A stretch of 64,000 nt of DNA from Methanobacteriota archaeon (lineage in GTDB: Archaea > Thermoplasmatota > E2 > DHVEG-1). The stretch is taken from NCBI GenBank assembly GCA_963769885.1, contig CAVYNH010000004.1, forward strand, positions 224,001 through 288,000, written 5' to 3'. Each line of letters begins with the position of its first letter. Position 1 is the first letter of the stretch. This document shows positions 6,301 to 50,604 of this stretch, piece by piece. The position numbers and the translations under genes are program-made. The notes beneath the pieces are model-generated. The model did no database searches and was not told the DNA's origin. It saw nothing but the letters and a program-made list of their open reading frames with translations.

Positions 6301-6309
6301 ACTTATTGC

Positions 6310-17690: not shown

Positions 17691-17694
17691 AGGC

Positions 17695-18480: not shown

Positions 18481-18493
18481 ACGTAGGTGGACC

Positions 18494-18670: not shown

Positions 18671-18676
18671 ACTCGA

Positions 18677-18958: not shown

Positions 18959-19025
18959 GGGTATCACGAGGTGGTACTAAGTATGGAGGGTAATAAGGAG
19001 GTTGTATATAAAAATGATAGGTGGT

Positions 19026-19682: not shown

Positions 19683-19853
19683 AGTTGATTTTCCCAATCC
19701 TCAGCCTCACCTTTAAACTTGACTATCGATTCGTATCTTCACTGAAATTCACGACAACCCGAACCATCCAACCCATGTAACTATCAGCGAGTACATAAAC
19801 CTCCCACCGACCAAAGAAAGTATTCCCCCCATTTCAAAACAAAAATCGAACAT

Positions 19854-20507: not shown

Positions 20508-20557
20508 CAGTTCAAGGAACGGTCCTCCCCCTGATAAAACCTTATGGCTCTGCAGGC

Positions 20558-21571: not shown

Positions 21572-21575
21572 AGTC

Positions 21576-35105: not shown

Positions 35106-35115
35106 GTCGTCTTTT

Positions 35116-35313
35116 TTATCGCTTTTTTTCGTTTTCTTTGACTTTGTAGAGGGTGATAGAGCCGTCTGAAAGGACGACCCATCGGAGTTTGTTGCCGTTC
35201 TTGAGTCTGAGGAGCTCGACGACTTCCGCGGGGACGGTGACGCGGCGGCGTGATCCGCGGATGGTGATTGCGGTGTCCTTGATGCATTTGACGGCGTTGA
35301 GGTCTACTTTCAT
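35116..35313 (-). CDS. AbrB/MazE-type DNA-binding protein
   Basis: GSRRRVTVPAEVVELLRLKNGNKLRW. Confidence 0.8.
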   Translation of the reverse strand: MKVDLNAVKCIKDTAITIRGSRRRVTVPAEVVELLRLKNGNKLRWVVLSDGSITLYKVKENEKKR

Positions 35314-35334
35314 GGTTTCCCTCCTTTTCTTTGG

Positions 35335-36099: not shown

Positions 36100-36115
36100 G
36101 GGGTCTCCTTGTTGT

Positions 36116-36967
36116 TTATTTGATGATGTATTTGGATGATTTTTTTGTGAGGTAGCGGGTGAGGATGCTGATGGCGAGGACGATGAGGAGGAGGACGAAG
36201 GCGACGGCGTAGGCTTTGTTTTGGACGGCTTTGTCTGGCATGCCGGCGAGGTTGAGGATGATGGTGGGGAGGGCGGCGGTCTGGTCGAAGAGGGAGGTGG
36301 GGAGGTAGTTGGAGTCGCCGACGGTGAGGAGGATGGAGGCGGCGTCGCCGATGCCGCGGCCGAAGCCGAGGAGGATGCCGGCGACGATGCCGGGCATGGC
36401 CTGGCGGCGGACGACGCGGATGGCGGTTTCGAAGCGGGTGCTGCCGAGGCTGTAGGCGCTTTCTTTGAGGCCGTGGGGGACGACTTTGATGGATTCGTCG
36501 ATGCTGCGGGTGATGATGGGGATTTCGAGGAGGGTGAGGGCGATGATGCCGAAGAGGACGGAGCCGTGGTTGATGCCGATGGCGAAGCTGATGGTGATGG
36601 CGAAGACGCCGTAGATGATGGAGGGGATGCCCCACATGAGGTCGAGGATGATGCGGATGGCGCTGGAGGCGGTGGTGCCGAGGAAGTCTTTTTGGAGGTA
36701 TATGGCGATGAAGATGCTGAAGAGGAAGGCGAGGATGGTGGCGGGGACGACGAGGAGGAGGCTGCCGGTGATGGCGTTGAGGAAGCCGCCGCCTGGCCCG
36801 AGGTAGAAGGTGCCGGCGGTGGTTTCGGTGAGCATTTGGAGGGAGAGGCTGGCGGCGCCGTTGAAGATAATGACGCCGACGATGAGGACGAGGCTGCCGA
36901 TGACGATGAAGACGGAGGCGATCATGAGGGCGAGGAAGATTTTTTCTTCGAGGGTGCGTCGGTTCAG
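36116..36967 (-). CDS. pstA: Phosphate ABC permease PstA
   Basis: GIPSIIYG, ESAYSLG, GRGIGD. Start is CTG 36967 (overlapping the pstC stop) or GTG 36976. Confidence 0.92.
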   Translation of the reverse strand: MNRRTLEEKIFLALMIASVFIVIGSLVLIVGVIIFNGAASLSLQMLTETTAGTFYLGPGGGFLNAITGSLLLVVPATILAFLFSIFIAIYLQKDFLGTTASSAIRIILDLMWGIPSIIYGVFAITISFAIGINHGSVLFGIIALTLLEIPIITRSIDESIKVVPHGLKESAYSLGSTRFETAIRVVRRQAMPGIVAGILLGFGRGIGDAASILLTVGDSNYLPTSLFDQTAALPTIILNLAGMPDKAVQNKAYAVAFVLLLIVLAISILTRYLTKKSSKYIIK

Positions 36968-38022
36968 TATGCCCACCTCTTGCTGGTGTGCCGGAGGACG
37001 AGGAAGGCGAGGAGGTTGAAGATGAGGACGACGAGGAAGAGGATGAGGGCGACGAAGATGAGGGCGGAGGCGAGGAGGGGGATGGAGCTGACTTCGGTGT
37101 AGTTGTTGGCGATGAGGCTGGCGAGGGTCTGGCCTGGGCCGAAGAGGCTGCTGGGGATGAGTTCTTGGTTGCCGATGACCATGCTGACGGCGATGGTTTC
37201 GCCGAAGGCTCTGCCGAAGCCGAGGAAGATGGCGGAGAGGATCCCGGGTCCGGAGGCGCGGAAGAGGACTTTTTTGACGGTCTCCCATTTGGTGGCGCCC
37301 AGTGAGAGGCTGGCTTCTTTGAGGGCGATGGGGATCGAGCTGATGGATTCGATGCAGAGGCTGATGATGATGGGGAAGACCATGATGGATAGGATCAGGG
37401 AGGCAGCAAAGAGGCCGAAGCCGCTGCTGGTGTGGACGCCGAAGGCGGGGGCGATGGTGTCGCGGACGACGGGGACGAAGACGAGGAGGGCGCATAGGCC
37501 GAAGACGACGGAGGGGACGCCGGCGAGGACGTCGATGAAGGGGCGGATGGTGTTGCGGAAGCGGCTGGGGGCGTATTCGGCGATGTAGATGGCGGTGAGG
37601 AGGGAGACGGGGACGGCGATGAGCATGGAGATGGCGGTGACGATGAGGGTGTCGATGATGACGGCGAAGAGGCCGAACTGGCCGGAGAAGGGTTTCCAGG
37701 TGGAGGAGAAGAGGATGTCGGTGATGGAGCGGCCTTCGAGGACGGTGAAGGAGCCGTTGATGAGGATGGCGATGAGGAAGATGAAGATGGCGAGGGCGGC
37801 GAGGGTGATGGTCATCATGAGGCGGGTGCCCAGGATGTCGAAGAGCCGGCGGCTGATCCTGATGAAGTCGAAGAAGATGATGACAAGGGAGACGGCGAGA
37901 AGGGCGAGGAAGATGATGAGATTATTGAGAAGGAAAAGGGAGAGGAGGGCGAGGATAAAGATCAACAAGGCAGAGAAGAAGGATCTCTTCTTGACGACGC
38001 TGGCTGCCTTGTTGAAGCGCAT
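36964..38022 (-). CDS. pstC: Phosphate ABC permease PstC
   Basis: LAGVPSVVFG, EASLSLGATKWE, GRAFGET. Confidence 0.94.
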   Translation of the reverse strand: MRFNKAASVVKKRSFFSALLIFILALLSLFLLNNLIIFLALLAVSLVIIFFDFIRISRRLFDILGTRLMMTITLAALAIFIFLIAILINGSFTVLEGRSITDILFSSTWKPFSGQFGLFAVIIDTLIVTAISMLIAVPVSLLTAIYIAEYAPSRFRNTIRPFIDVLAGVPSVVFGLCALLVFVPVVRDTIAPAFGVHTSSGFGLFAASLILSIMVFPIIISLCIESISSIPIALKEASLSLGATKWETVKKVLFRASGPGILSAIFLGFGRAFGETIAVSMVIGNQELIPSSLFGPGQTLASLIANNYTEVSSIPLLASALIFVALILFLVVLIFNLLAFLVLRHTSKRWAY

Positions 38023-38041
38023 GAGCGAGGTTGTGGTGTTG

Positions 38042-39046
38042 TTATGTTCCGAGTTTGCTGAGCTGGTCGGCGATGATGGCGTCGGGGACTGGGGCGTAGC
38101 CGTTGGTGATGGTGAGTTGTTGGCCTTCGGTTAGGATCCAGCGGACGAAGTCGCGGGTTGCGCCTGTGAAGTTGTTGAGGGTGACGAGATAGACGAGTCT
38201 GGCGGGTGGGGCGTGGAGGTTGCCGTTGATCTCGGCGTTGACGATGTCGGTGCGGGTGGTGTAGATGGTTTCGTTGGCGTCGAGTTTGCCGTTGCCGTTG
38301 AAGTCGATGGGGACGACGACGAGGCCGGTCTTGGGGCGTAGGGTGGAGTTGGAGTAGATGTAGTTGACGTTGCTGTAGCCGATGCCCAATTGGTCGCTGA
38401 TGATGGAGGCTGACATGCTGTCGTCTCCTTTGACCTTGGTGACGGTTTCGACGGTGGGGAAATCGTCTTGGGTGTAGTTGCCCAGGAACTTCGCCCAGGT
38501 TTCTGCGGCGCCGCAGACGTCGGAACGGGAATAGACCTTGATGACGTCGGTGACGGTTGTGTCGTTGACGAGCGTGCCCCAGGTGGTGATGTTGCGGGTG
38601 ATGAAGACGTCGCGGAACTGTTGCTGGGTGAGGCCGGTGGTGGTGATCTTGTCTTTGACGGGGTTCGCGTCGTTGATGGTTGGGAGGACTGCGTCTTTGA
38701 CTACGGCAACGAAGACGATGCCTTTGTCTGCTTCAGCGGTGGTGACGTCTCGGGAGACCATGCCGAGGTTGACGGTGCCTGCGAGGGCGTCGGACATGCC
38801 TTTTCCGGCGCCGCCGGATGAGACGTCGATGCGGATGTTGGTGTGGTTCTTTTGGTAGGTTTGGGCCCAGACGACCATCATCGGGTATAGGCTGTAGGCG
38901 CCTGAGACCTTGATGGTGTTGGTGGTTTGTTGGCTGGTGCAGCCGCTGAAGCCGACGACGACGAGGGTGGTGGCGAGGAGAAGCGTTGTGACGGCGAGCA
39001 GGGTTTTGCGCTCAGGCCTGTGGGTTCCTTTCCTTTCTTTCATCAT
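38042..39046 (-). CDS. pstS: Phosphate-binding lipoprotein PstS
   Basis: Lipobox FSGC; SGAYSLYP, GGAGKG, GMVSR. Confidence 0.9.
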   Translation of the reverse strand: MMKERKGTHRPERKTLLAVTTLLLATTLVVVGFSGCTSQQTTNTIKVSGAYSLYPMMVVWAQTYQKNHTNIRIDVSSGGAGKGMSDALAGTVNLGMVSRDVTTAEADKGIVFVAVVKDAVLPTINDANPVKDKITTTGLTQQQFRDVFITRNITTWGTLVNDTTVTDVIKVYSRSDVCGAAETWAKFLGNYTQDDFPTVETVTKVKGDDSMSASIISDQLGIGYSNVNYIYSNSTLRPKTGLVVVPIDFNGNGKLDANETIYTTRTDIVNAEINGNLHAPPARLVYLVTLNNFTGATRDFVRWILTEGQQLTITNGYAPVPDAIIADQLSKLGT

Positions 39047-39117
39047 GAATCTGTCTCCTTTTTTGGTACTGGTAAGCGTGACATTGCCTACCCCATGGCC
39101 GTACCATAGGCGCCCGG

Positions 39118-39177
39118 GTATTTAAAAGTATTGGTAAATATTGGCAAAATGCCAAAATTGGAAATTTATTGGAAAAC
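39118..39177 (-). promoter_or_regulatory. pstS TATA box with upstream TTGGNAAA repeats
   Basis: TTTTAAATA on the minus strand at ~39119-39127; TTGG(T/C/A)AA units at 39131, 39141, 39158, 39169. Confidence 0.45.
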
Positions 39178-39294
39178 AGCCATGAAAATCAGCGTATTCG
39201 AGCCCAATCCTGTGACAACGGGGTTTTCGCGGAAAAAAAGCAAAAAACAGAAAAACAGCGAAAGGGGGAAAAAGAAAGGGAAAAAAGGCGCCGG

Positions 39295-39702
39295 CTATTT
39301 GAGCCAGACGCGTATCTGCGGGCGGTTCTGTTTCTCCTCGACCTTGGTCGCGATCTTCTCTTCGCGGGCCAGCCAGCCGAGCGCGCTGAACGCCTCGCTG
39401 ACGTCGATGCGGGCCATCCGGGCAAGCGTTTGAACATCAATCTCGCCCTTCTGGGACAGGACCCCCCAGATCTTGCCGGCGTCCGTGCCGATCTTCGTGG
39501 TCAGGTTCGTGTCCCCGAGCTTGTACACGGTGCCGTTCTTACAGATCTTGTTCTCGCGGGCCAGCCAGCCGATCGCAGCCTGCAGCTCGCGCTCATCCAG
39601 GAGCGTCATCGTCAGGAGCTTCGTCTCTGACAGCGGTCCCTTGCAGTTCAGTGTTTCCCATACCTTTCCAGCATGCTCTCCAAATTGAGTCACAGGTGTC
39701 AT
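39295..39702 (-). CDS. Tandem DUF2582-type winged-helix protein (paralog of 2994-3398)
   Basis: AGKVW..AIGWLARENKI..AGKIW..ALGWLAREEKI. Confidence 0.82.
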   Translation of the reverse strand: MTPVTQFGEHAGKVWETLNCKGPLSETKLLTMTLLDERELQAAIGWLARENKICKNGTVYKLGDTNLTTKIGTDAGKIWGVLSQKGEIDVQTLARMARIDVSEAFSALGWLAREEKIATKVEEKQNRPQIRVWLK

Positions 39703-39893
39703 ACTCTCGAATCCCACCTTCACTTATCGCTAGAAGGTATAGCCTACAAGGTTATTAGTGTTATGATTCTGCGAAGCACCGCGGAAAAAAAATTGAATAG
39801 ACAACGCTGACGCACCCCTATTATTATAGTACTGTGCGGCGCAATCGCCCGTAGGACTCGGATAAGACTCACTTCGCGTTCGGGTCGCTAGCT

Positions 39894-40018
39894 GAAGCAC
39901 GTGAAGGAAGACCGCCGAGTGAGGAGGCAGGAATAACAAGAGAGGGAGATACTAAATGGTTACTGTGACACACAAGGCAGTGCAATACCAGAAGGCGACA
40001 AAGGTTCGAACTGCATAA
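39894..40018 (+). pseudogene. 3' remnant of an IS6-family transposase
   Basis: EAREGRPPSEEAGITREGDTKWL / ..KAVQYQKA aligns with EALNGKTPSEEAGITIEGEDKWL..KSIQYQKA of the intact transposase. Confidence 0.8.
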
Positions 40019-40047
40019 GAATCACATGATTATGCACCGTCATCTAA

Positions 40048-40290
40048 TCAAACAAAAAAATAAAAACTACTCACAATCACCAAAAGTAATCCAAATCCAA
40101 GCCAAATCCCAGCAAGTACCCAAAATCCAACTGGATTCTCTTCTCTATTCAGCGATAATACTTGACTTGAGTACCGAGGAACGAAACGAAGTTCACCCTT
40201 TCTAATGTAATAAATACCGAACGATATTAATCCTATCCCCAAAACAAAGAATATCAGAATTTTTTCTACGCCTACACCTGCTGACATCAC
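40048..40290 (-). CDS. Small two-TM membrane protein (probable cargo of the older element)
   Basis: Two hydrophobic helices around REENPVGFW. Confidence 0.6.
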   Translation of the reverse strand: MMSAGVGVEKILIFFVLGIGLISFGIYYIRKGELRFVPRYSSQVLSLNREENPVGFWVLAGIWLGFGLLLVIVSSFYFFV

Positions 40291-40384
40291 AGGATCAATG
40301 AAAGAATCCGCTGGTTGGTAATAACATTTTTCGAGGTTTGAGTTATCCTCTATTGCTCAAGGAGACCTGTTAGTGACCACAGGA

Positions 40385-40427
40385 CATTCCCCACAGATAA
40401 GTCCCCACATCATTTTTCCACAGAATC
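40385..40427. repeat. Degenerate right TIR of an older related element
   Basis: 28/43 ungapped identity to 47608-47650; ends ..CACAGAATC directly before CACCCCAA. Confidence 0.7.
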
Positions 40428-40435
40428 CACCCCAA

Positions 40436-40476
40436 GGTTCTGTGTAAAACCGTAGTGGGAATTTTGTAGTGGGAAA
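40436..40476 (+). repeat. Left TIR with two GTAGTGGGAA boxes
   Basis: GGTTCTGTGTAAAACCGTAGTGGGAATTTTGTAGTGGGAAA. Confidence 0.93.
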
Positions 40477-40546
40477 ATAGGGTTGGTGTTTCTACAGATA
40501 TGTTTTTAAAGAAAAAATCAATATTAAAACATCTTTAAGAGATGAA

Positions 40547-40867
40547 ATGATGGGTTTCTTCAAGAAGAAAGCAGAGGAGAAAACATCTCATATCAAGAAA
40601 ATTGAAACTGATGATAAAGAATTTGAAGATGTCACATTAGAAAAAAATATTGATGCAGATATCGGATATACGAAACGTGATCTTTACATTGTTCCTGGTG
40701 TTGATGAAGTTGATATCCCAAGGTCAAAGGTAAGGCAGGAGTTTTTAACCAGACCTACGAATTATAGATGTACTAAGTGTAAGAGTATCCTCTATAATAC
40801 GAAACTTGATGGTAGACATTATTATTGCCCAATCTGTAATGTGCAATGGGATAAGGACGATTTATAA
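40547..40867 (+). CDS. Hypothetical protein with C-terminal Zn ribbon
   Basis: CTKC...CPIC. Confidence 0.7.
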   Translation: MMGFFKKKAEEKTSHIKKIETDDKEFEDVTLEKNIDADIGYTKRDLYIVPGVDEVDIPRSKVRQEFLTRPTNYRCTKCKSILYNTKLDGRHYYCPICNVQWDKDDL

Positions 40868-40980
40868 TGCCAATTGATTTGCATAAAACCTTAGTTAAAA
40901 CTGTTTTACTGTTTTTCTGATACATTGGATTTGTGTATTTTAGGTTTGCAAACTATTTAAAAACTTAAAGTGTTTATTCT

Positions 40981-41062
40981 TATGCCACCCCTATCAATCT
41001 CACTCATGTGTTTCGCCAACTATGAGTCTTTTTGATGGGGGTGGTATATATAACCAATTTTT
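40981..41062 (+). ncRNA. Candidate hairpin antisense sRNA against the transposase mRNA
   Basis: TATA TTTAAAAA at 40956-40963; 17-bp outer stem with G-U pairs only on the + strand; 41000-41019 complementary to 42815-42834; downstream T-run. Confidence 0.65.
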
Positions 41063-41127
41063 CTAAAAACAATATATAAAAGAAAAAGAAAAACTATATT
41101 AGATTAGATTAAATTTCTTATTCTAAA

Positions 41128-41889
41128 ATGCCGATTGCTCTAAGTGTATTTGGATTAGACGAAATAGAAGAGAAAATATTTTTAAATGAAACAAAAAAAA
41201 CCTTCTCTTTATCTGATTTCCAATCAAACCTAGATTCAATTGCGGAGATCAAAGATATCCAGCCAGCTACCACAACTTTCACTCGAACATCCTATAATCC
41301 TCAAACAAAACGAGCAAAGTATTATGTCGAGCATTGGACCGATACAAATAAAGAAATCATTCGTGCTTTCCTGAAAGACCCGGACGAATCAATTCTCTAT
41401 GCTGACCAACTTTTAAAACCATTAGCAACTCATAAATTTGAATATGGATTTCAAACCTTAGTTAAACTTAATATCATGATTGATTTCGTGGACAAAGAGA
41501 TTTTTGTTTTTATGAATAAAAGAATCGCTAAACAGATAATAAATCGTTTGGAGGCAGTAGGAGGTTTAAAATCTCTCCCTATTTTCTTGAACTTAAAAAA
41601 CATAAGTTAAAGTGCAGTTGTTCAAGATGTTAATATTGTGTGGGAAGATGAACTGGATGTTAATGTTAAAAAAATCGGATGGATAGGGGTTCAAGTTCAT
41701 AAAGATAAGAGAGTAGATTTAAGCAAAGCAACTGCAATAAAAGTCGAAATAATAAGCAATCAAAAAATCATCCCTGATGTTTTTATTTCTGATGATGCTA
41801 GATTAAGTTCATTGTCCCCTAATGTGGGCACAAGTGAAATGGTCCAGATTTATAAGATATTAAAGGAGAAGACCAAACAATTAAGTTAG
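41128..41889 (+). pseudogene. Unknown ~253-codon gene split by one in-frame TAA at 41608-41610
   Basis: ORFs 41128-41610 and 41638-41889 are in the same frame with open codons between them. Confidence 0.65.
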
Positions 41890-42537
41890 TAGTTTTTTAA
41901 CAATTTCTTGAACCATTGATAATCCTTTAAAGTTAATGCTAACTGTGTTTTCCATTATTATTTTTATTTTAGTTTTAGATTCTTGGTCCTCCATATTGAT
42001 TATGTAATTCTCAATGACAAAGCCCTTTGGTTTTTTTATGCGAATTAATTTCCATTGAAAAGGAAGTTCTAGATCGAGTTTGCAATTCAACAAAGAACGA
42101 AAAATCTTTTTATTGATAAGACCTTCAAAATCAATTATTATCTCACTTATTTTTTTTGACAAATCTCTTAGTCCGGATTCCATTCTTTCAATTTCTACAT
42201 AGACCTCTTTGATAGATACTTTAAAAACAATAACAGAATAATGGCTATTGGAAAAATCAAGTTTTATTTCATTGTCAATTTTTTTTGTTCCTTCACCAAA
42301 CATTGAATGTACTTCATTTTTTATAATATTAAAATCAGTCTCTGTTTCAAAAGTAAAAATCAACCTAGCATTCGCTCCTTTATTTGTAACGATAGCCCAT
42401 TTTTTTCTTAGTCTATTTAAAAGATCATATTTGTCTTCTATAAGTAAACCTATTATCGAACCCACACAAGTAGTAATGATTAGAATAAAGCCGACATATG
42501 TATTAACAAACTCTACTATTGAATTAAAGTCAGTCAG
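41881..42537 (-). CDS. Hypothetical N-terminally membrane-anchored protein
   Basis: Frame is open upstream of GTG 42465, through a TM segment, to CTG 42537, which overlaps the upstream TGA and follows AGGTGA. Confidence 0.65.
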   Translation of the reverse strand: MTDFNSIVEFVNTYVGFILIITTCVGSIIGLLIEDKYDLLNRLRKKWAIVTNKGANARLIFTFETETDFNIIKNEVHSMFGEGTKKIDNEIKLDFSNSHYSVIVFKVSIKEVYVEIERMESGLRDLSKKISEIIIDFEGLINKKIFRSLLNCKLDLELPFQWKLIRIKKPKGFVIENYIINMEDQESKTKIKIIMENTVSINFKGLSMVQEIVKKLLT

Positions 42538-42734
42538 CCTTTTTCACCTTCGTTATTTTCCTTGTTTTGTGCTTTTTCAAGGAGTTCGACTTTTTGTAAT
42601 TCGATAAGTCGTAGTCGTAATGTCTCGTGAACAAATTCGCTTGAATCTCTATAAAGAAACCTTTTGTTATTTACAATTTCATTGATTTTTTTATGAATTT
42701 CAATATCTAAGTTTAGGGTCTTATATTTCGCCAT
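42534..42734 (-). CDS. Ribbon-helix-helix (CopG-like) regulator
   Basis: YKTLNLDIEIHKKINEIV...YRDSSEFVHETLR; divergent from the transposase. Confidence 0.75.
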   Translation of the reverse strand: MAKYKTLNLDIEIHKKINEIVNNKRFLYRDSSEFVHETLRLRLIELQKVELLEKAQNKENNEGEKG

Positions 42735-42826
42735 AACACATATATGGCTTATATATATGTTATACTATTTAAGTATATTTAGATACCTTTAAATAGAGAT
42801 TGTAATATGTAATATTGGCGAAATAC

Positions 42827-43999
42827 ATGAGTGAACGAATAGACATTAAAGAAATGGTGAATGCTCGAAGAGCACGAGGCATGATTCTCCTTGAAAACGG
42901 ATTTGAACCAAAGGAAATTAACTCGAAGACATGGATTGTCCCAAGCCAAACAGGGAACGGCACATATACGGTTCATTATGCGGATGATGAACGGACCATT
43001 TGGAGATGCACCTGCAAAGACTTTGAAATTCGAGGGCTCCCATGTAAACATATCAATGCCGTGAAAATCTGGAAAAATCTCCATGATAGATTCGAGCAAC
43101 TAAACCTTAAAGTGAAACAAAGCATCAGCCTTGGAAACACTGAGACTCAAGGATGCAAATTCTGCCATTCATCAGACATCACAAGATACGGCGTGAAAAA
43201 CGGGAAGCAAGTCTATTTCTGTAAATCATGCAATCGAAGATTCGTGAACAATATTGATTTTGAAAACATGAAGTACAACCCTAAGATAATCGCCTTGACG
43301 CTTGATCTCTATTTCAAAGGGATAAGCCTTCGGAAAATCAGCCACCACCTCAAGCAGTTCTATAATCTGAATATCAGCCACAAGTCCGTGTACAATTGGA
43401 TAGAGAAGTACGTAGGAATCATGAATGAGTATGTGAACAGTATTCAACCTGATATTGGGGGCGTGTGGCATACTGATGAGATGATGGTGAAGGTGGATGG
43501 TTCCTGGGAGTATCTCTGGAATGTAATTGATGAAAGCACTCGATTCCAGCTTGCATCTATCGTTTCAAAGGAACGTCACGTTAGGGATGCACGCATGGTG
43601 TTCCAGAAGGCGAAGAAGAATGCTGGAGGAAGGAAACCAAAGTACTTAGTCACGGATGGACTATTAGCATATCGTGAGGCCGTCAATAAGGAGTTTAATA
43701 CGAATCACGGCAATATTGAGCATCTTTGGAATGTAGGGATACAACATCACCCGAACAACAACCATGTAGAACGGTTACATGGCACTATCCGCCAACGGGA
43801 AAAAGTCATACGAGGAATGAAGATAGAAGAGACTCCGATTATCGAGGGACATAGGTTATACTATAATTTCATCAAGCCCCATGAGGCGTTGAACGGAAAG
43901 ACACCATCAGAAGAAGCAGGGATAACCATCGAAGGGGAAGATAAATGGCTTACTCTCATGAAGAAATCAATTCAATATCAGAAGGCGAATAAACAATAA
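42827..43999 (+). CDS. IS6-family DDE transposase with N-terminal SWIM finger and Zn ribbon
   Basis: SWIM CTCKDF..CKH; CKFC..CKSC; HTH; DDE triad WHTDE, VTDG, NNHVERLH. Confidence 0.92.
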   Translation: MSERIDIKEMVNARRARGMILLENGFEPKEINSKTWIVPSQTGNGTYTVHYADDERTIWRCTCKDFEIRGLPCKHINAVKIWKNLHDRFEQLNLKVKQSISLGNTETQGCKFCHSSDITRYGVKNGKQVYFCKSCNRRFVNNIDFENMKYNPKIIALTLDLYFKGISLRKISHHLKQFYNLNISHKSVYNWIEKYVGIMNEYVNSIQPDIGGVWHTDEMMVKVDGSWEYLWNVIDESTRFQLASIVSKERHVRDARMVFQKAKKNAGGRKPKYLVTDGLLAYREAVNKEFNTNHGNIEHLWNVGIQHHPNNNHVERLHGTIRQREKVIRGMKIEETPIIEGHRLYYNFIKPHEALNGKTPSEEAGITIEGEDKWLTLMKKSIQYQKANKQ

Positions 44000-44059
44000 C
44001 CCCTTCTTTTTTTCTTTTGCCAAAATTAAAGAAGAATCGAACAATATCGAATATCAGTT

Positions 44060-46885
44060 ATGGAAGATGACCTTGTTAAACAAAAAGTACAATCACTCAT
44101 AGATGATTTCAGAAGTAATTATAACGAATACAAGAAAGAATCCGAAGCTAGTATAGAAACAAAACTAATTGAACCACTCTTCAAATGTTTAGGTTGGACT
44201 GAAAAAGATTTTAGCAAACGAGAACGAACACAACGAGAAGGCAAACTAGGTTTTGCGGATTACACGTTCTACATAAAAGATAAGAAAGTATTTTTCCTCG
44301 AAGTAAAAAAGATTGGAGTGCCGTTAGACAAAGAGGCAGATGCACAAGTCGTATCTTATGCTCTATCAAAATCTGTTTCCATCGCAATCTCGACGAATTT
44401 CGAACAGCTCAAAGTGTTTTGTGTCGAAGAAGAGAATTTAGATAAAAGAATGATTTCAATCTTCAAAACACCAGAAGATTACCTTGACAAATTCTATGAT
44501 TTGATTTTACTTTCTAAGTCTAGTTTTGAACAAGATCTCTTAATGAAAAAAGCTGAAGACCTTAATCTATTAAAAAAACGGATAACCATAGATAAACCAC
44601 TTCTTGACAACCTAATTCTTATCCGTAAGTTCATTGCTGATGATATAGAGAAAAAATATTCAGGGAAATATCAACCCAATGAAAAAGAAGAGATCATACA
44701 AAGAATTATCGACAGACTGATTTTCATCAGGAAATGCGAGGACACAGGAATTAACCCAGAGAACCTGACCCTAAAAGATGTCCTCACAGTAACTGATGAA
44801 AAAGCATACAAAAAATTAAAAGAGATATTCGAAGAATACAATACTCGATACAATAGTGGATTATTCGCCATCGATAAAGACAATGAATGCGATAGGATAC
44901 AGATAACTGGAGATATAATTAAAAAACTCATTGGATATCTCTACATTTCCAGAAACGGAGGATACCACTATAATTTCGAATGGATACCTGCCGATATTCT
45001 TGGACAAGTCTATGAACAATACCTTGGAAAGATACTAGAACAAACAAAATCAGGTAAAGCCAAACTAACAAATGGACAGGTACATCGAAAGGAACAAGGC
45101 ATTTATTATACGCCTACCTTTGTCGTTGATTATATCGTAAAAACTACAGTTGGAGAAGTGTTGAAGAATAAAAAAGTAAAAGTAAAGGAATTAAAAATAT
45201 TGGACCCTGCTTGTGGCTCGGGTTCTTTCTTAATCAAAGCTTTTGATTATATCTACCGAAATCAATCAACCGGGGATTCTCAACAATATAGAATTGACGG
45301 TCAAGGGCAGTATTCTGTTAAAACAGAGATACTGAAAAATAATCTGTACGGAGTGGATTTAGATAATAAAGCAATAGAAATAACCAAGTTAAATTTACTC
45401 TTAAAAGCAGCGGAGAAAGGAAGACGTTTACCTGTAGAGATTGACATCAACATAAGACAAGGAAATTCATTAATCGACGACGAATCAATTGCAGGATTGA
45501 ATGCTTTTAAGTGGACCGACAAAACAAAAAATAAGGACAACAGGAAATTTGACGTAGTTATTGGAAATCCGCCTTATATCAAGGTAGAACAAATTAAAAA
45601 AGAAGAAAAAGAATGGATTTATCAAAATTTTGAAAACGCTACTGGAAGAACTGATTTATACGTACTTTTTTTAGAGAAAGCATTAGAGCTAACAAAGGAC
45701 GACGGCCTAATCTCTTTCATTATTCCAAGTATATGGATGAAAGCGAAATATGGAGAAAAACTAAGAGAGAATTTGGTAAGAAACTATCAGATAAAATCAA
45801 TCATCGACTTCGGCGATCTTAAGGTCTTTGAAAGTGTCACCACTTATCCATGTATCATTTTGATTAAAAAGAAGAAACCAACTGGAAACGACACCATCAT
45901 CTATTATAAAGTTCCTAGTTTGAATGAATCAATAATTAACAATCTTGAAAATGCTATAAAAAAGGACTCTTGGATGATTAGGCAAAAAGAATTTGATTGG
46001 AACTTTGCAAATCCACAGGTAAAAAAAATATTCGATAAATTAAACAAATCATCAAAAATCAGGCTAAGTGACCTAAGAGACCAAATTTATGAAGGTTTGA
46101 TTACCGGAGATAACAAGGCTTTTTTTGTTGATAGAGAGACAGTAGAAACAAAAAATCTCGAAAGGGAATTGTTAAAACCTGTTCCAAAAGGAAAAAACAT
46201 CAGACGTTTTTCAATTCGGTGGGAAAAAGAATATGTCATATATCCTTACAAACAGAATATGCTTAAGACTGAACCTGTTAATATCAAAGAATATCCAAAC
46301 GTAAATTCTTACCTTGCTGAATTTGAAAAAAAGCTCACAGCTAGAACCTCAATTAAAGGGACTAACAAAAAATGGTTTGAACATGTTCGTCCTAGAGAAA
46401 AATGGTGGTTTGAAAAACAAAAAATCTTAACTCCAAACCTATCATCAAGTAACAACTTTGCTATTGACGAAGGACGTTCAAATGAATATTTTTATGTTGA
46501 CCATGATGCATATGCGATTACGCTAAAAACAAATAGCAGAGAAGATTTATTGTTTATTTGTGGGCTTCTTAATTCATCTCTTATAGAGTTTTACATTAAG
46601 CAGATAAGTCCTATGTTCTCAGGTGGATATTACAAATATCATACTCAATATCTTGATCCAATCCCGATAATTAAACCATCTAAAAAAGAAGAAATCAGAT
46701 TCGTGAAATTAGTCGAGAGGATTATTCTTCTGAATAAAACATTAACAAAGATTGGCGATAAAAAGACTGCCGAAAGTGCAAAACTCGAAGAAGAAATTAA
46801 GAAAGTTGATAATCAAATCGATGAACTTGTTTTTGACCTCTACCATTTGACCAAAGACGAAAAGGAGATTATTAAAAAATCTTAA
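44060..46885 (+). CDS. Type IIG restriction-modification enzyme (Eco57I/TaqI-like fused REase-MTase-TRD)
   Basis: PD-(D/E)xK ADY..LEVK; GIYYTP; ILDPACGSGSFL; GNPPY; TaqI_C-like C-terminus. Confidence 0.92.
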   Translation: MEDDLVKQKVQSLIDDFRSNYNEYKKESEASIETKLIEPLFKCLGWTEKDFSKRERTQREGKLGFADYTFYIKDKKVFFLEVKKIGVPLDKEADAQVVSYALSKSVSIAISTNFEQLKVFCVEEENLDKRMISIFKTPEDYLDKFYDLILLSKSSFEQDLLMKKAEDLNLLKKRITIDKPLLDNLILIRKFIADDIEKKYSGKYQPNEKEEIIQRIIDRLIFIRKCEDTGINPENLTLKDVLTVTDEKAYKKLKEIFEEYNTRYNSGLFAIDKDNECDRIQITGDIIKKLIGYLYISRNGGYHYNFEWIPADILGQVYEQYLGKILEQTKSGKAKLTNGQVHRKEQGIYYTPTFVVDYIVKTTVGEVLKNKKVKVKELKILDPACGSGSFLIKAFDYIYRNQSTGDSQQYRIDGQGQYSVKTEILKNNLYGVDLDNKAIEITKLNLLLKAAEKGRRLPVEIDINIRQGNSLIDDESIAGLNAFKWTDKTKNKDNRKFDVVIGNPPYIKVEQIKKEEKEWIYQNFENATGRTDLYVLFLEKALELTKDDGLISFIIPSIWMKAKYGEKLRENLVRNYQIKSIIDFGDLKVFESVTTYPCIILIKKKKPTGNDTIIYYKVPSLNESIINNLENAIKKDSWMIRQKEFDWNFANPQVKKIFDKLNKSSKIRLSDLRDQIYEGLITGDNKAFFVDRETVETKNLERELLKPVPKGKNIRRFSIRWEKEYVIYPYKQNMLKTEPVNIKEYPNVNSYLAEFEKKLTARTSIKGTNKKWFEHVRPREKWWFEKQKILTPNLSSSNNFAIDEGRSNEYFYVDHDAYAITLKTNSREDLLFICGLLNSSLIEFYIKQISPMFSGGYYKYHTQYLDPIPIIKPSKKEEIRFVKLVERIILLNKTLTKIGDKKTAESAKLEEEIKKVDNQIDELVFDLYHLTKDEKEIIKKS

Positions 46886-47430
46886 AGACTAAATATTTTA
46901 ATCTCTTTTATTTTTTCATTGACATTTTCAGGAGAGCAACATGGTAAATATTTTTCTGCATTCTTACAAAAAATCGAATCAGTAGAAACTAAGAGGTCAC
47001 AACCTACTTCTAATGCTGTTGCGAGATGAATCGAATCAGAAGCAGAAAGATTAGACTCTTTGCAAATCTTTATTGCCTTTTCGATGGCTACTTCATCTAA
47101 CCAATAAAATTGTACAAATTTATATGGAGTGAAAAACCTGTTTTTGATTTTTGTATAAATTAATTCTAGGGTCTTATCTGATAAATCTTTATCATCCCTT
47201 TTTCTTAAAATTTTTTTAAATGTCCATCCTTCTTTGATTTTTTCATAGATAAATTCATTATCCTTCTGCACACTTAAAGCTTCCATTAATGCAAATTGAG
47301 ATGTAATACAGTCCCATCCATTATTTTTTATTTCCTCTATCAGGTCAATGGAAGGAGTATGTATGCCTTGGACAATGTCAACAATGATGTTTGTATCTAT
47401 GTAAATCTTGGGTTTTATGAATACTTCCAT
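46882..47430 (-). CDS. PIN-domain (VapC-like) ribonuclease
   Basis: IYIDTNII, TSQFALME, DSIHLATA, STD. Confidence 0.88.
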   Translation of the reverse strand: MEVFIKPKIYIDTNIIVDIVQGIHTPSIDLIEEIKNNGWDCITSQFALMEALSVQKDNEFIYEKIKEGWTFKKILRKRDDKDLSDKTLELIYTKIKNRFFTPYKFVQFYWLDEVAIEKAIKICKESNLSASDSIHLATALEVGCDLLVSTDSIFCKNAEKYLPCCSPENVNEKIKEIKIFSL

Positions 47431-47432
47431 AA

Positions 47433-47591
47433 TTAAAATCTTGGCCTTCTTTTTTTGACATGTCTTGATGGTTTCCTTCTTCTACTGAAAAAAACTTTAT
47501 TGGAACTTATAGATTGACCATCCATAGTCTCCTCTGCCTTGCCTTCTGAATAATTAATCTCTGATTTATCATTTTCCTTTTTGTCGGCCAT
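47433..47591 (-). CDS. 52-aa charged peptide upstream of the PIN gene (candidate antitoxin)
   Basis: MADKKENDKSEINYSEGKAEETMDGQSISSNKVFFSRRRKPSRHVKKRRPRF*; stop is 2 nt before the PIN ATG. Confidence 0.5.
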   Translation of the reverse strand: MADKKENDKSEINYSEGKAEETMDGQSISSNKVFFSRRRKPSRHVKKRRPRF

Positions 47592-47609
47592 ACCTGTTAC
47601 CACTCTTGA

Positions 47610-47650
47610 TTTCCCACTACTAAATTCCCACTACTCCCTTACACAGAACC
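47610..47650 (-). repeat. Right TIR with two GTAGTGGGAA boxes
   Basis: Reverse complement GGTTCTGTGTAAGGGAGTAGTGGGAATTTAGTAGTGGGAAA. Confidence 0.93.
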
Positions 47651-47654
47651 CACC

Positions 47655-47671
47655 CCAACAAGGTTTATATA
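47655..47671 (+). promoter_or_regulatory. Probable BRE/TATA of the r-protein operon
   Basis: CCAACAAGG-TTTATATA; the only TATA-like sequence before rpl3. Confidence 0.65.
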
Positions 47672-47867
47672 CCAAATCCGGTATGCCAAGTAATCCTGGT
47701 CCTAACCAGACACGCATCCGGGCAATACCCACCACGGGCACCCCCGGCAAACAACGACCCACCAATCACTTCTTGGGCCGCGGCGGACATGTCACGGTTA
47801 GCGACACACACCACAGCAGGAAACCGAAGGAAACTTCAGTCTTCCAACTCACGGCAGAGGATACATT

Positions 47868-48860
47868 ATGCCAAACATCCACCATCCAAAAAGAGGCTCC
47901 CATGGATACTGGCCCCGCAAACGCGCCGCCAGCCAAACCCCCCACATCCAACGCTGGATCCAGGGCGGCGACAAACCCAAACTCCAAGCCTTCTTCGGAT
48001 ACAAAGCCGGCATGACCCACGCCTTCGTCGTCGACTACCGACCCACCAGCACCACCAGCGGCCGCGAAGTCAAAGTCCCCGTCACCGTCGTCGAAACCCC
48101 CCCTATGAGAATCGCCGCCATCCGCGCCTACCAACGCGACGCCTACGGCCTCCACGTCACCTACGAAACCTGGGCAGACAACCTCGAACCAGAACTCAAC
48201 CGACGCATCCCCATGCCTAAGAAAAAAACCCAGGCTCCAAAAGAGATCCCCACCGACGCCGAAGAAATCCGCGTCATCACCTACACCCAACCCAAACTCG
48301 TCACCGGCGTCCCCAAAAAAGCCCCCGAGATCACCGAAGTCAAAATCGGCGGCGGCACCATCCAAGACCAGATCACCTACGCTAAAAGCATCCTCGGCAA
48401 AGAACTCAAAATCAGCGACGTCGTCAGCGAAGGCGACATGCTCGACACCATCGCCGTCACCAAAGGCAAAGGATTCCAAGGCACCATCAAGCGCCACAAC
48501 GTCAAACTCCTCTTCCACAAAAACAGCAAACACCGACGCCTCATCGGCACCGCAGGCTCCTGGCACCCCAGCTACGTCCAAGCCACCGTCCCCCAGGCGG
48601 GACAAATGGGCTACGCCCAACGCACCGAATACAACAAGCGCGTCCTGAAGATCGGCGACAACGGCACCGAGATCACCCCCGCCGGCGGCTTCCCCAAATA
48701 CGGCGTCGTCCGCAACTCCTACATCCTCCTCCACGGCAGCATCCCCGGGCCCACCAAACGCCTCATCGGACTCCGAGACGCCATCCGCTACCAGCGCGGC
48801 GTCAAAGTCCAAAAACCAGAGGTCACCTTCATCTCAGTCAGCAGCAAACAAGGAGTGTAA
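47868..48860 (+). CDS. rpl3p: 50S ribosomal protein L3
   Basis: PKRGS..WPRKRA, GYKAGMTH, TKGKGFQG. Confidence 0.97.
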   Translation: MPNIHHPKRGSHGYWPRKRAASQTPHIQRWIQGGDKPKLQAFFGYKAGMTHAFVVDYRPTSTTSGREVKVPVTVVETPPMRIAAIRAYQRDAYGLHVTYETWADNLEPELNRRIPMPKKKTQAPKEIPTDAEEIRVITYTQPKLVTGVPKKAPEITEVKIGGGTIQDQITYAKSILGKELKISDVVSEGDMLDTIAVTKGKGFQGTIKRHNVKLLFHKNSKHRRLIGTAGSWHPSYVQATVPQAGQMGYAQRTEYNKRVLKIGDNGTEITPAGGFPKYGVVRNSYILLHGSIPGPTKRLIGLRDAIRYQRGVKVQKPEVTFISVSSKQGV

Positions 48861-48863
48861 TCC

Positions 48864-49625
48864 ATGACGAAGATCAACGTCTACGGCATCGACGGCACGG
48901 TGAAAGAACAGATCACCCTCCCCAAGGTCTTCACCACCACCTACCGCCCAGACATCATCAAGAAATCCTTCGAAGTCACCCATTCCAACCAGCGACAGCC
49001 CTACGGCACCGACAAACTCGCCGGCCTCCGGCACGCCGTCGCCTCGGTCGGCAAAGGACGAGGCATGAGCCGCGTCCCCCGCCTCAGCCAGGGAAAAAAC
49101 GCCGCCCTCGCCCCTAGCGTCGTCGGCGGCAGACGCGCCCACCCACCCAAAGCGGAACGCAACTGGAAAGAAAAGATGAACAAAAAAGAACAACAGCTCG
49201 CCCGCAACAGCGCCCTCGCCGCAACCGCGGACAAGACCATCGTCACCGCACGCGGACACGCCTTCAAGGACGACATCACCCTTCCCATCGTCGTCGACGA
49301 CACCTTTGAAACACTCGCCAAGGTAAAAGACGTCATCGCCGCATTTGACAAGATCGGCATCTACAGCGACGTCCTCCGCGCCGAGAACGGCAAACACATC
49401 CGCGCCGGCAAGGGCAAGATGCGCGACCGCAAATACCGCATCCCGAAATCAATCCTCATCATCTCCACGAACGAAATCCTCGCTCGCAGCTCCAAGAACC
49501 TCACTGGCGTCGACGTCACGAAGCCCGCGCAGCTGAACATCGAGCTCCTCGCCCCCGGCGGCACCGCCGGCAGACTCACCCTCATCACCAAAGCCGCGCT
49601 CGCCAAACTCGGAGGTGCCAAGTAA
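48864..49625 (+). CDS. rpl4p: 50S ribosomal protein L4
   Basis: GRGMSRVPR, GGRRAHPP, LAPGG..GRLT. Confidence 0.97.
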   Translation: MTKINVYGIDGTVKEQITLPKVFTTTYRPDIIKKSFEVTHSNQRQPYGTDKLAGLRHAVASVGKGRGMSRVPRLSQGKNAALAPSVVGGRRAHPPKAERNWKEKMNKKEQQLARNSALAATADKTIVTARGHAFKDDITLPIVVDDTFETLAKVKDVIAAFDKIGIYSDVLRAENGKHIRAGKGKMRDRKYRIPKSILIISTNEILARSSKNLTGVDVTKPAQLNIELLAPGGTAGRLTLITKAALAKLGGAK

Positions 49626-49626
49626 C

Positions 49627-49884
49627 ATGGACCCCTACGCCATCGTCCTCTACCCCCACGTCACTGAGAAAACCATGATGCAGATGGAACAGAAGAACGC
49701 TCTCGAGTTCATCGTCCGACGCACCGCGGCAAAGGCGCAGATCAAGGCCGCCGTCGAAAAAATGTTCGACGTCAAAGTCAAGAGCGTCAACACCCGCATC
49801 ACCAAAATCGGCAAACACGCCACCGTCATCTTCATGCCAGAGTTCAAGGCAGAGGACATCGGCATGCGCATAGGAGTCTTCTAA
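49627..49884 (+). CDS. rpl23p: 50S ribosomal protein L23
   Basis: PHVTEK, NALEFIV, VNTRIT. Confidence 0.96.
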   Translation: MDPYAIVLYPHVTEKTMMQMEQKNALEFIVRRTAAKAQIKAAVEKMFDVKVKSVNTRITKIGKHATVIFMPEFKAEDIGMRIGVF

Positions 49885-49896
49885 AGAGGTGAACCC

Positions 49897-50604
49897 ATGG
49901 GAAAGAACCTGATCCAACAACGCCGAGGCCGCCACCGAGGCCGTTTCAACGTCCAATCCCACAAATTCCGCGGAGACATCAAGTACGGTAGCGACAAAGA
50001 AATGCACGGCACTGTGACCGAGATCATCCACGACCCGGGTCGCAGCGCTCCTATCGCCAGACTCCGACTCCCTGACAACAAGACGCTACAGATACTCGCC
50101 ACCGAGGGCATCTCGGTCGGACAAACGATTACGTTCACCAAGAGCCGGGCGGACGTCGAACCCGGCAACATCATGCCCATCGGGGTCGTCCCCGAGGGGT
50201 ACCCTATTTATGATATTGAGATCACCCCCGGCGACGGCGGCAAGCTCGTCCGCGCCGGCGGCAGCAGCGCGTCCATCATCTCCCATGACCCACGCCGCAC
50301 GATCGTCCGGCTGCCCTCCGGACAATTCAAGACCTTAGATTCCATGTGTCGGGCGACCATCGGGGTACCCGCCGGCGGCGGACGTCCCGAGAAGCCGTTC
50401 ATGAAAGCAGGCAAAAAATACTGGGCGCGCCGGCCCAAGGGTAGACAATACCCCATCGTCCGTGGCATCGCCATGAACCCTGTGGACCACCCCCATGGTG
50501 GTGGAAGCCACCAGCACGTCGGCAAACCCAGCTCAGTCTCCCGTGGCGCGCCCCCGGGCCGAAAAGTCGGGAACATAGCGCCTCGCCGGACCGGACGGAG
50601 GTAG
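49897..50604 (+). CDS. rpl2p: 50S ribosomal protein L2
   Basis: HDPGRSAP, AMNPVDHPHGGG. Confidence 0.97.
   Translation: MGKNLIQQRRGRHRGRFNVQSHKFRGDIKYGSDKEMHGTVTEIIHDPGRSAPIARLRLPDNKTLQILATEGISVGQTITFTKSRADVEPGNIMPIGVVPEGYPIYDIEITPGDGGKLVRAGGSSASIISHDPRRTIVRLPSGQFKTLDSMCRATIGVPAGGGRPEKPFMKAGKKYWARRPKGRQYPIVRGIAMNPVDHPHGGGSHQHVGKPSSVSRGAPPGRKVGNIAPRRTGRR

Follow-up and report, generated by a model that had tools for sequence, protein, structure and literature searches.

Single-transposase cargo elements of Thermoplasmatota and their placement beside TATA boxes

Insertion sequences of the IS6 type are textbook minimal elements, which carry cargo only as two-copy composites. Family members measure 789-880 bp, or up to 1456 bp in long clades, and ISDsp3 is the only one with one passenger gene (PMC7986276, PMC6807381). 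Their terminal inverted repeats start with GG and have G at position 7; no archaeal 'IS6' element has ever been studied experimentally, and the family membership of these elements has been doubted by Harmer and Hall (PMC6807381). Integrators tethered to promoters or particular sites include yeast Ty3 (through TFIIIB), Ty1 and Tf1, as well as bacterial Tn7 at attTn7.

Here, we analyzed a 64-kb stretch of a Thermoplasmatota contig (the window), in which a first-pass annotation made from sequence alone had proposed a complete 7.2-kb IS6-family element with one central transposase (SWIM, zinc ribbon, HTH and DDE), cargo on both sides, 41-bp terminal inverted repeats identical at 36 positions and a perfect 8-bp target-site duplication. 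This was set against IS6 elements of ~0.8 kb that normally move cargo as two-copy composites. All of these claims held, the assignment to IS6 on profile scores and the baseline in the literature (PMC7986276, PMC6807381).

The element shares with IS6/IS26 elements, including the zinc-finger clostridial clade (ISCpe7), a homologous HTH+DDE transposase, the 8-bp duplication, the lack of a resolvase and ends that start GG..CTGT with G at position 7. Unlike them, it belongs to a family of 2-8 kb rather than 0.8-1.5 kb with several passengers inside one end pair, and it has a 390-aa transposase with SWIM finger and zinc ribbon, ends with three phased subterminal sites, a predicted antisense RNA of its own and position-specific insertion beside TATA boxes, a rule that IS6 members do not have. 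The definition of a compact IS (0.79-0.88 kb, long clades to 1.46 kb, transposase as the sole gene) is not met. IS6 pseudo-compound transposons and IS26 translocatable units resemble it in IS6-type carriage of cargo and in arrays that arise by repeated integration at one place. However, these systems depend on a pair of IS copies in direct orientation or on an IS26 that is already resident, and no duplication results from their targeted integration, whereas the present element has one transposase, keeps both ends and re-duplicates the 8-bp word at each stacking.

A 7.2-kb element that moved as one piece

The element occupies positions 40436-47650 of the window (7215 bp; Table 1), its left end starting and its right end finishing at these positions, and with the perfect duplication (40428-40435 equals 47651-47658) the unit spans 40428-47658. 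The first 41 nt of both ends are identical at 36/41 (87.8%), and the inverted repeat reaches 52 nt at 81% identity. The 64-kb window contains exactly four copies of a 10-nt box, two in each end with 14-bp spacing (40452/40466; 47611/47625). The earlier claim of two boxes per end, 14 bp apart, held for the box and the spacing but not for the number of phased sites, which is three at a 14-bp period in each end; the iterated sites held as repeats, and their binding by the transposase is only inferred. The GC content of the element is ~33% overall (0.28-0.43 inside) versus ~0.59 outside.

Table 1. Features of the element and its insertion site (window coordinates)
Feature	Position	Strand	Evidence
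Relic of an older sister element, same site	39772..40427	+	tblastn, ends profile, synteny break
Left target-site duplication copy	40428..40435	.	8-bp repeat
Left terminal inverted repeat (12-nt terminus; sites 40452-61, 40466-75, 40480-88)	40436..40488	+	repeat search, ends profile
Cargo ORF, 106 aa, C-terminal CxxC...CxxC zinc ribbon, no family assigned	40547..40867	+	
Candidate anti-transposase small RNA gene (TATA-like box 40954-62; outer stem 40983-95 / 41034-46; loop box 41000-41019)	40954..41046	+	hairpin, complementarity, covariation
Cargo gene broken by one in-frame TAA (41608-41610)	41128..41889	+	
Cargo ORF, 194 aa, convergent to TAA-split gene	41881..42465	-	
Small ORF, 66 aa, divergent from transposase, no significant family	42534..42734	-	
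TATA-like box of transposase gene	42788-42795		
Transposase, 390 aa (394 from upstream TTG): SWIM zinc finger, C4 zinc ribbon, HTH, DDE core	42827..43999	+	profile matches
Single-chain type IIG restriction-modification enzyme, 941 aa	44060..46885	+	Eco57I, N6_Mtase, TaqI_C, HSDR_N_2
PIN-domain protein, 182 aa, likely toxin	46882..47430	-	PF01850, 43.1 bits
Small ORF, 52-56 aa, just upstream of PIN gene, possible antitoxin, no family match	47433..47603	-	
Right terminal inverted repeat, three phased sites	47597..47650	-	repeat search, ends profile
Right target-site duplication copy	47651..47658	.	8-bp repeat
Intact host core promoter (5-bp BRE-like spacer, then TATA box 47664-47671)	47659..47671	+	

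Nine ORFs accompany the transposase, with cargo on both of its sides, and no second transposase is present in the element (single ORF 42815/42827-43999). Separate inverted repeats flanking the transposase alone, which would have spoken against a unit transposon, were found neither by pattern searches nor by a profile of 96 family ends at maximum sensitivity; apart from the two termini, this profile detected nothing but a relic end that lies outside the element (40375-40425). Among the ORFs of the element, no resolvase or integrase family and no replication or capsid family was matched, and Pfam, NCBIfam and PADLOC scans of all ORFs revealed neither a TnsA/B/C core nor a target selector (TnsD/TniQ, CRISPR). 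The features of a unit transposon (passengers together with a single transposase, one end pair, one duplication and an empty site in a relative) are all met, and that of a two-copy pseudo-compound transposon (cargo between two directly repeated IS copies) is not. The proposal of a non-composite unit transposon is supported by the absence of internal ends and by 20 sister elements of the same architecture. The element moved as one 7.2-kb piece, making the 8-bp duplication, and there is little doubt that it is an intact, autonomous unit transposon with one transposase.

The transposase scored 134.2 bits with the IS6 model NF033587 (cut-off 125), the whole 202-position model being covered by residues 149-354, and it matched PF13610 (E 9e-21) and DDE_Tnp_IS240 (residues 218-351). 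Its SWIM finger (30.5 bits) comprises residues 51-84, and an IS1/IS1595-type zinc ribbon comprises residues 114-145. It is very likely that an IS6-type HTH+DDE core sits behind these added modules. The nearest annotated relatives are ISCpe7-type IS6 transposases, with 32% identity over residues 143-374 (tblastn). An AlphaFold2 model based on a 25-sequence alignment had a mean pLDDT of 50, with the catalytic half below 45 and N-terminal domains too poor to judge. A SWIM-bearing IS6 element was not described in the literature searched.

The element is one member of a large and seemingly undescribed family in Thermoplasmatota, whose elements measure 2-8 kb and have a single transposase. We identified 20 more complete elements of 2026-8114 bp, each with a perfect 8-bp duplication and one transposase; a comparison of cargo across homologues, suggested by the first-pass annotation, showed unrelated cargo in each, mostly restriction-modification, toxin-antitoxin and other defence genes. 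Even the other copies in the same genome have only the transposase (72-75% nucleotide identity) and the ends in common. The 12-nt terminus is conserved across 96 unique family ends, the 14-nt periodicity of ends is 0.655 versus ~0.25, and left and right ends resemble each other more when they come from one element (0.72) than when they come from different elements (0.60). The family is patchily distributed (6 of 31 related genomes), and stacked ends were also seen in SWIM-less relatives (50-57% identity), for which only a few clean flanks were present. More distant relatives, with 38-41% identity, occur in Bathyarchaeia, Methanomicrobia and Archaeoglobi. In this family, an enzyme of the IS6 kind powers unit transposons of kilobase size, by which restriction-modification and other defence genes are carried from one archaeon to another.

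An empty site was found in a relative of the same genus (G001), in which the flanking synteny blocks are 200 bp apart versus 7888 bp here, and a single copy of the target region is present without the element. A relative lacking the element but without a clean single-octamer junction would also have spoken against a unit transposon, and this condition was not fulfilled. The flanks are 88% identical between the two genomes, and the insertion is younger than their split. The element had been called recently inserted, which is true only in this relative sense; one cargo gene is already interrupted by a nonsense codon. Synteny with G001 is lost at 39771, where a relic begins that is also missing from that genome. 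It consists of a C-terminal transposase fragment (39861-39971; residues 346-382, tblastn E 4.4e-4), a small membrane ORF and a right end (40375-40427; ends profile E 1.7e-4) that is decayed and terminates exactly at the duplicated octamer. Downstream of the element, the host promoter drives a ribosomal-protein operon, L3 (47868-48860) being followed by L4, L2, S19, L22 and S3.

Insertion at a fixed offset from the TATA box

In members of the family, exactly 13 bp separate one end of the element from an outward-firing TATA box that lies downstream of it. Such a box was present at this offset in 18 of 74 unique ends; each of 43 further offsets gave 0 or 1, and no end had a TATA box in reverse orientation at offset 13. 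The distance equals the 8-bp duplication plus 5 bp, the box fires away from the element, and both BRE and TATA remain intact after insertion. In the target consensus, TATA is invariant, AA is found at -4/-3 in 17/18 and G at -6 in 13/18. Genes downstream of insertions encode the thermosome (at least nine loci), ribosomal proteins and 16S rRNA; the thermosome-promoter cases are often not independent events, because many of them are orthologous sites in related MAGs. Approximately one quarter of the complete elements have no recognisable TATA at the offset (such as L017 and L047).

We observed 15 ends that adjoin another end across exactly 8 bp. Successive insertions re-use one octamer and form head-to-tail stacks, and in the window the relic precedes the intact copy.

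Several simpler rules were rejected. The element is oriented one way relative to the promoter in seven cases and the other way in three, which rules out a strict orientation rule. The three insertion sites in this genome have no mutual similarity beyond the promoter core and could not be copies of one larger repeat. The small-RNA stem of the window element (see below) contains six bases of the duplicated octamer; RNA-guided targeting of the IS110/IS1111 bridge or seeker RNA type was nevertheless ruled out, because words common to the small-RNA region and the target were no longer than in shuffles across nine elements.

No TATA- or promoter-targeting archaeal IS was described in the literature searched, within which the fixed position beside the TATA box of the strongest promoters would represent the first promoter-anchored target choice of an archaeal transposon, parallel to that of yeast retrotransposons with Pol III factors. 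It accounts for the defence genes piled up before housekeeping operons in these genomes, makes a connection between basal transcription factors and DNA integration open to experiment, and provides a natural recipe for harmless insertion at a defined position. Like Ty3, Ty1, Tf1 and Tn7, the element uses a 'safe harbour': it enters at a constant distance from a transcription signal that is conserved and essential, and this signal is spared while the site is hit again. On the other hand, the Ty elements use another class of enzyme, and Tn7 differs in its target selector, the element having no TnsD-like gene.

Possible mechanisms of target choice

In the mechanism proposed here, the HTH of the transposase would bind the phased sites of the ends, and the enzyme would cut at the GG termini. 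By analogy with the family to which it belongs, transposition may follow the IS6-style copy-in (cointegrate) route; since the element has no resolvase, the cointegrate would then be resolved by host recombination. The evidence for this route is only indirect and consists of the lack of a resolvase or integrase family among the ORFs and of copies whose flanks are exchanged without duplication (L011/L068). In target choice, the extra domains at the N-terminus of the transposase may read the complex of TBP and TFB assembled on the promoter, and not DNA sequence alone. Such tethering is inferred without experimental or expression data, and in our judgement it is as likely to be wrong as right. A bolder version, to which we would give clearly less than an even chance, is that the core promoter, bent by TBP/TFB, serves as a docking site for the SWIM finger and the zinc ribbon, so that an archaeal DNA transposon is tethered, and that the docked transposase makes its staggered cut of 8 bp between -13 and -6 relative to TATA. 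If true, the most heavily occupied promoters (rRNA, ribosomal-protein and thermosome) would provide a Ty3-like 'safe harbour', and element stacks would be exchange points at which defence cargo is shuffled between elements.

It remains possible that the transposase reads a BRE/TATA-like word directly without any host factor, the bias to strong promoters reflecting only the best match to the consensus. The sharp target consensus is in favor of this explanation, and the two extra zinc modules could read DNA. However, there are 73 AA-N2-TATA words outside elements in the own genome, yet five insertions were found on three promoters, two of which were hit twice; such words are far more frequent in most host genomes (30-45% GC), and the sequence 3' of TATA is not alike between the targeted promoter classes. 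A less likely alternative is IS26-like stacking driven by residents, in which a bound resident end draws the next insertion and the promoter pattern only reflects the first, possibly selected, insertion. The ends that adjoin across exactly 8 bp are consistent with it, and IS26 integrates ~100-fold better beside a resident copy (PMC7986276). Nevertheless, insertions without a resident neighbour (the C6 element of the own genome, L044 and L078) show the same 13-bp offset, and targeted integration of IS26 produces no duplication and a shared IS copy, whereas here both ends are kept and the octamer is re-duplicated.

The least probable explanation is that the 7.2-kb unit represents a small plasmid or virus that became integrated, or a composite that has decayed, with the transposase merely inside. 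The ~1.9 kb of cargo without recognisable function, a weak, sub-threshold match of the 106-aa ORF to the primase large subunit and the foreign GC content could be cited for it. On the contrary, family-typical ends and the perfect 8-bp duplication bound the element, it has no second transposase, internal end, integrase, replication or capsid family, and the sister elements have the same layout with different cargo.

A candidate anti-transposase RNA and the cargo genes

Each element carries a hairpin with a loop complementary to the leader and start codon of its own transposase. In the window element this is the loop box 41000-41019, and in the outer stem 8 of 13 pairs are compensatory. Among 33 leader/loop pairs, cognate combinations are paired at 96.7% of positions and non-cognate ones at 71.5%, most deviations being G.U. 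The RNA gene lies 0.3-4.5 kb from the transposase gene and shares its strand; it has a TATA-like box of its own, and cargo often stands between the two. No Rfam match reached the gathering score. Like IS10 RNA-OUT and other anti-transposase antisense RNAs, it would be a stem-loop with a loop that base-pairs to the transposase mRNA at its 5' end and start codon; unlike RNA-OUT, it does not overlap in cis but is encoded at a distance. The RNA is predicted, in the absence of expression data, to repress transposase translation; such a role would illustrate clearly how an archaeal mobile element can restrain itself through RNA.

With regard to cargo, the type IIG enzyme was also recognized by PADLOC (REase_MTase_IIG, E 8.5e-125, residues 7-937). 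PADLOC and PHROGs scans gave nothing usable for five unknown cargo ORFs and the PIN partner. The start of the 66-aa ORF and the transposase share a 10-nt leader word. The two-gene module of the TAA-split gene and the 194-aa ORF is also present in family member L021, in which the intact homologue of the split gene encodes a 257-aa protein (5578-6351, minus strand).

Structure of the element and its movement as one unit

The ends of the element are identical at 36 of their first 41 positions, and the inverted repeat reaches 52 nt at 81%. Only four exact matches to a 10-nt box were found in the 64-kb window, two per end and 14 bp apart. On re-examination of the sequence, the 36/41 ends, the two boxes per end with their 14-bp spacing and the perfect 8-bp target duplication claimed by the first-pass annotation all held. 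Across all ends of the family, self-identity was 0.655 at a 14-nt shift versus approximately 0.25 at other shifts, and positions 17-54 accommodate three such phased sites. The end-site sequences fall into subtypes, with a left/right identity of 0.72 within an element versus 0.60 between elements, which fits cognate recognition between transposase and site. GC content was 0.28-0.35 across most of the element, 0.41-0.43 in the transposase gene and ~0.59 on either side.

Features of the element, its relatives and its host genome (plain numbers are window positions; C-numbers are contigs of the same assembly, GCA_963769885.1)
Feature	Location	Details
Element	40436-47650	7215 bp
Target duplication	40428-40435 and 47651-47658	perfect, 8 bp, flanking the element
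Relic (decayed older sister)	39772-40427	left of the element
Transposase	42827-43999	sole one in element; 390 aa (394 aa from upstream TTG)
NCBIfam IS6 model	residues 149-354	whole model; 134.2 bits, cut-off 125
DDE_Tnp_IS240	residues 218-351	E 9e-21
SWIM finger	residues 51-84	30.5 bits, cut-off 19.6
IS1/IS1595-type zinc ribbon	residues 114-145	score over cut-off
Type IIG restriction-modification enzyme	right of transposase	941 aa, single-chain
PIN-domain gene	right of transposase	convergent with restriction-modification gene; 52-56-aa partner upstream
Zinc-ribbon ORF	left of transposase	106 aa
Split cargo gene	left of transposase	one in-frame TAA at 41608-41610
194-aa ORF	left of transposase	convergent with split gene
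66-aa ORF	left of transposase	divergent from transposase
Small-RNA box	41000-41019	inverted copy of 42815-42834 (transposase leader and start codon)
Shared 10-nt start word	42724-42733 (minus) and 42816-42825 (plus)	66-aa ORF and transposase
Promoter hit, window		large ribosomal-protein operon; L3 at 47868
Promoter hit, C6 element		16S rRNA gene 410 bp downstream
Promoter hit, C1		thermosome gene
Further copy	C6	4480-bp element
Further copy	C1	5.4-kb element, twice in near-palindromic contig start
Further copy	C1	end of a further variant
TBP/TFB paralogue loci	C6:157845-158918, C7:86691-88292, C6:331888-332436, C7:68255-68803, C5:29053-29601

In an alignment of 25 transposase sequences, C65, C67, C77 and H79 of the SWIM finger, the ribbon cysteines and D221, D281 and E319 were invariant; the last three are inferred from their spacing to be the DDE triad. 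The first-pass annotation had proposed a single transposase with SWIM, zinc ribbon, HTH and DDE parts, of which the single gene, SWIM finger and ribbon held by domain scores, the DDE assignment resting on spacing. The closest annotated proteins in plasmid records were ISCpe7-type IS6 transposases, with 32% identity over residues 143-374 only.

A profile of 96 family ends, run at maximum sensitivity over the whole window, revealed no internal ends beside the transposase: it matched at three places only, the two termini and, immediately beyond the element, one relic end. Separate repeats flanking the transposase alone, which would have refuted a unit transposon, were thus not found. In G001, a same-genus relative, the flanking synteny blocks (76% identity to window 38498-39771 and 88% to window 47660-50397) are 200 bp apart versus 7888 bp here, and a single copy of the target region lies right before the TATA box, without element or relic. 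This empty site supports insertion as a unit. A search did not find the transposase in G001 (91% complete), and of 31 related genomes searched, 6 had it. In species-representative genomes and metagenome contigs, 113 family loci were identified, and automatic end-pairing recovered 20 pairs, 2026-8114 bp long, in which the 8-bp duplication is perfect and exactly one transposase is present. The earlier description of a non-composite unit transposon therefore held, as did that of cargo on both sides, since ORFs lie left and right of the transposase.

The 941-aa protein matched the PADLOC REase_MTase_IIG model over residues 7-937 (E 8.5e-125) and the Pfam families Eco57I, N6_Mtase, TaqI_C and HSDR_N_2. 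The split gene has an unbroken homologue of 257 aa in another family member (L021), and its TAA reflects either a nonsense change or an error in sequencing; together with the 194-aa ORF it forms a two-gene module also present in that family member. Domain-family scans detected no recombinase, replication or virion families among the element ORFs.

The element groups with IS6-type elements by the homology of its transposase, the sequence of its ends and the size of its duplication, and to this extent the earlier IS6 assignment held, but its length, its genes, the architecture of its transposase and its behaviour towards targets do not fit the family as defined. IS6 members are 789-880 bp long, the long clades reaching 1456 bp; only one, ISDsp3, is known to have a passenger gene, and cargo otherwise moves as a two-copy pseudo-compound transposon or an IS26 translocatable unit (PMC7986276, PMC6807381), in agreement with the baseline (~0.8 kb, two-copy composites for cargo) assumed previously. 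Archaeal 'IS6' elements are only distant relatives without an experimental record (PMC6807381). In the literature searched, we found neither SWIM-bearing IS6 transposases nor any archaeal IS with promoter-anchored insertion described. All evidence is comparative sequence data from MAGs, and both the transposition chemistry and the manner of target recognition are inferred.

Insertion next to promoters

The target pattern, which was not among the earlier claims, came out of flank comparison. Each of the three own-genome elements has, beyond its end, the 8-bp duplication, then 5 bp and then an archaeal TATA box facing away from the element, and no further similarity was found among the three flanks. 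When the unique, non-abutting ends of all loci were pooled (74 ends), 18 had the exact TATA word at offset 13, versus 0-1 at each of 43 other offsets, and none had it there in reverse orientation. Another five ends have a TATA with one mismatch at offset 13. The 5-bp spacer was NAANN in 17 of the 18 cases. Insertion thus leaves both the BRE-like stretch and the TATA box intact. Where the flank suffices, the downstream gene encodes a thermosome subunit in at least nine loci, many possibly of shared ancestry, and a ribosomal protein in three.

Fifteen ends meet the end of another element across exactly 8 bp, and L021 has three copies of one octamer, set around two stacked elements. The relic also ends flush against the duplicated octamer; therefore, an older sister occupied the same position before the present copy. 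Outside elements, the own genome contains 313 TATA words, 73 of them with the AA spacer, yet five insertions lie on three promoters. It thus seems that sequence is insufficient for target choice, and an occupied promoter is our favoured reading of what is recognised, although this is inferred from sequence alone and nothing here tests it.

Two GGAACT words 3 bp apart form a conserved direct repeat ~5 bp upstream of the thermosome-promoter octamer in five loci (L019, L044, L049, L060 and L068). They may represent a heat-shock operator; insertion would shift the repeat kilobases from the core promoter.

Related elements and their hosts

The own-genome copies have only the transposase (72-75% nucleotide identity) and ends in common; their cargo is unlike and all are 32-35% GC. 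The start of C1 (C1:1-19450) forms an almost perfect palindrome whose centre is near 9725 and whose arms share 98-99% identity, differing in small indels and stop codons (locus L124 covers 9700-22000). By its appearance it is likely a fold-back assembly artefact, its two 5.4-kb copies then probably being one.

In 18 elements with 77 cargo ORFs, the commonest families were DNA methyltransferase/restriction enzymes of type IIG and other types, with a type IIG homologue common to seven elements, then the nucleases ThaI, Type ISP, GmrSD and Mrr, as well as Shedu, PIN, RelA/SpoT and UPF0175, and a few transporters. Host contigs are mostly 30-45% GC, and the elements are conspicuous in the window's host because it is the most GC-rich.

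That this host is an archaeon is indicated by archaeal 16S rRNA, TBP, TFB and thermosome genes in the same assembly (2.09 Mb, seven contigs). The nearest transposase relatives are from Thermoplasmatota/Thermoplasmatales MAGs. The genome has three TBP and four TFB paralogues, including two TBP genes side by side and one TBP adjoining an N-terminally short TFB (237 aa) without zinc ribbon. Very strong strand composition skew flanks the element (window 34500-39000 and 47500-50000), with GC skew of +0.2 to +0.5 on the left and about -0.3 on the right and AT skew opposite. It follows gene orientation (phosphate ABC genes on the minus strand, ribosomal-protein operon on the plus strand), the coding strands being rich in A+C.

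Several other arrangements were observed. L011 (5843-11736) and L068, of the same structure, contain a complete element without target duplication whose flanks are both of the type upstream of a thermosome promoter, which is the expected outcome of recombination (inversion) between two copies in inverse orientation, each at its own promoter. At three places (C6:783202-783255 in the 4.5-kb element, L026:11593 and L012:10329), an additional sequence resembling a right end, and oriented like the true one, was noted 60-330 bp inward of it; these may be remnants of elements that were once nested or fused. Outside the window, the ends profile gave two further weak matches on one strand, spaced by 485 bp (C4:113082-113134 and C4:113567-113613; E 7e-3 and 3e-5). 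L019 (CAZQSR010000113.1), a 7070-bp contig that is nearly all one family element with thermosome-promoter flanks, was placed in an Ignavibacteriaceae MAG bin, probably by a binning error.

A candidate small RNA complementary to the transposase start

A box complementary to the transposase leader and start codon was present in 10 of the 11 elements checked first, tracking the leader of its own element; it was not found in the own-genome C6 element. The box sits in a hairpin loop; a conserved TATA-like box precedes the hairpin, whose 13-bp outer stem has compensatory changes at eight pairs and almost no broken pairs. For 33 unique leader/box pairs, among which the variable core takes 26 different forms, pairing occurs at 96.7% of positions in cognate versus 71.5% in non-cognate combinations, and 44 of the 63 non-Watson-Crick positions are G.U. 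No Rfam family matched at the gathering score.

We read the hairpin as a putative trans-acting anti-transposase RNA, an interpretation inferred from sequence alone. Alternatively, the box could act by fold-back inhibition of read-through transcripts. Between the box and the transposase downstream of it are 293-4544 nt, so that cargo often separates the two. A resemblance of the small RNA to the target site was rejected, as no relation appeared in a test across elements.

The 66-aa ORF and the transposase share one 10-nt word at their starts. Since this word is also complementary to the small-RNA loop, the small RNA could act on both mRNAs.
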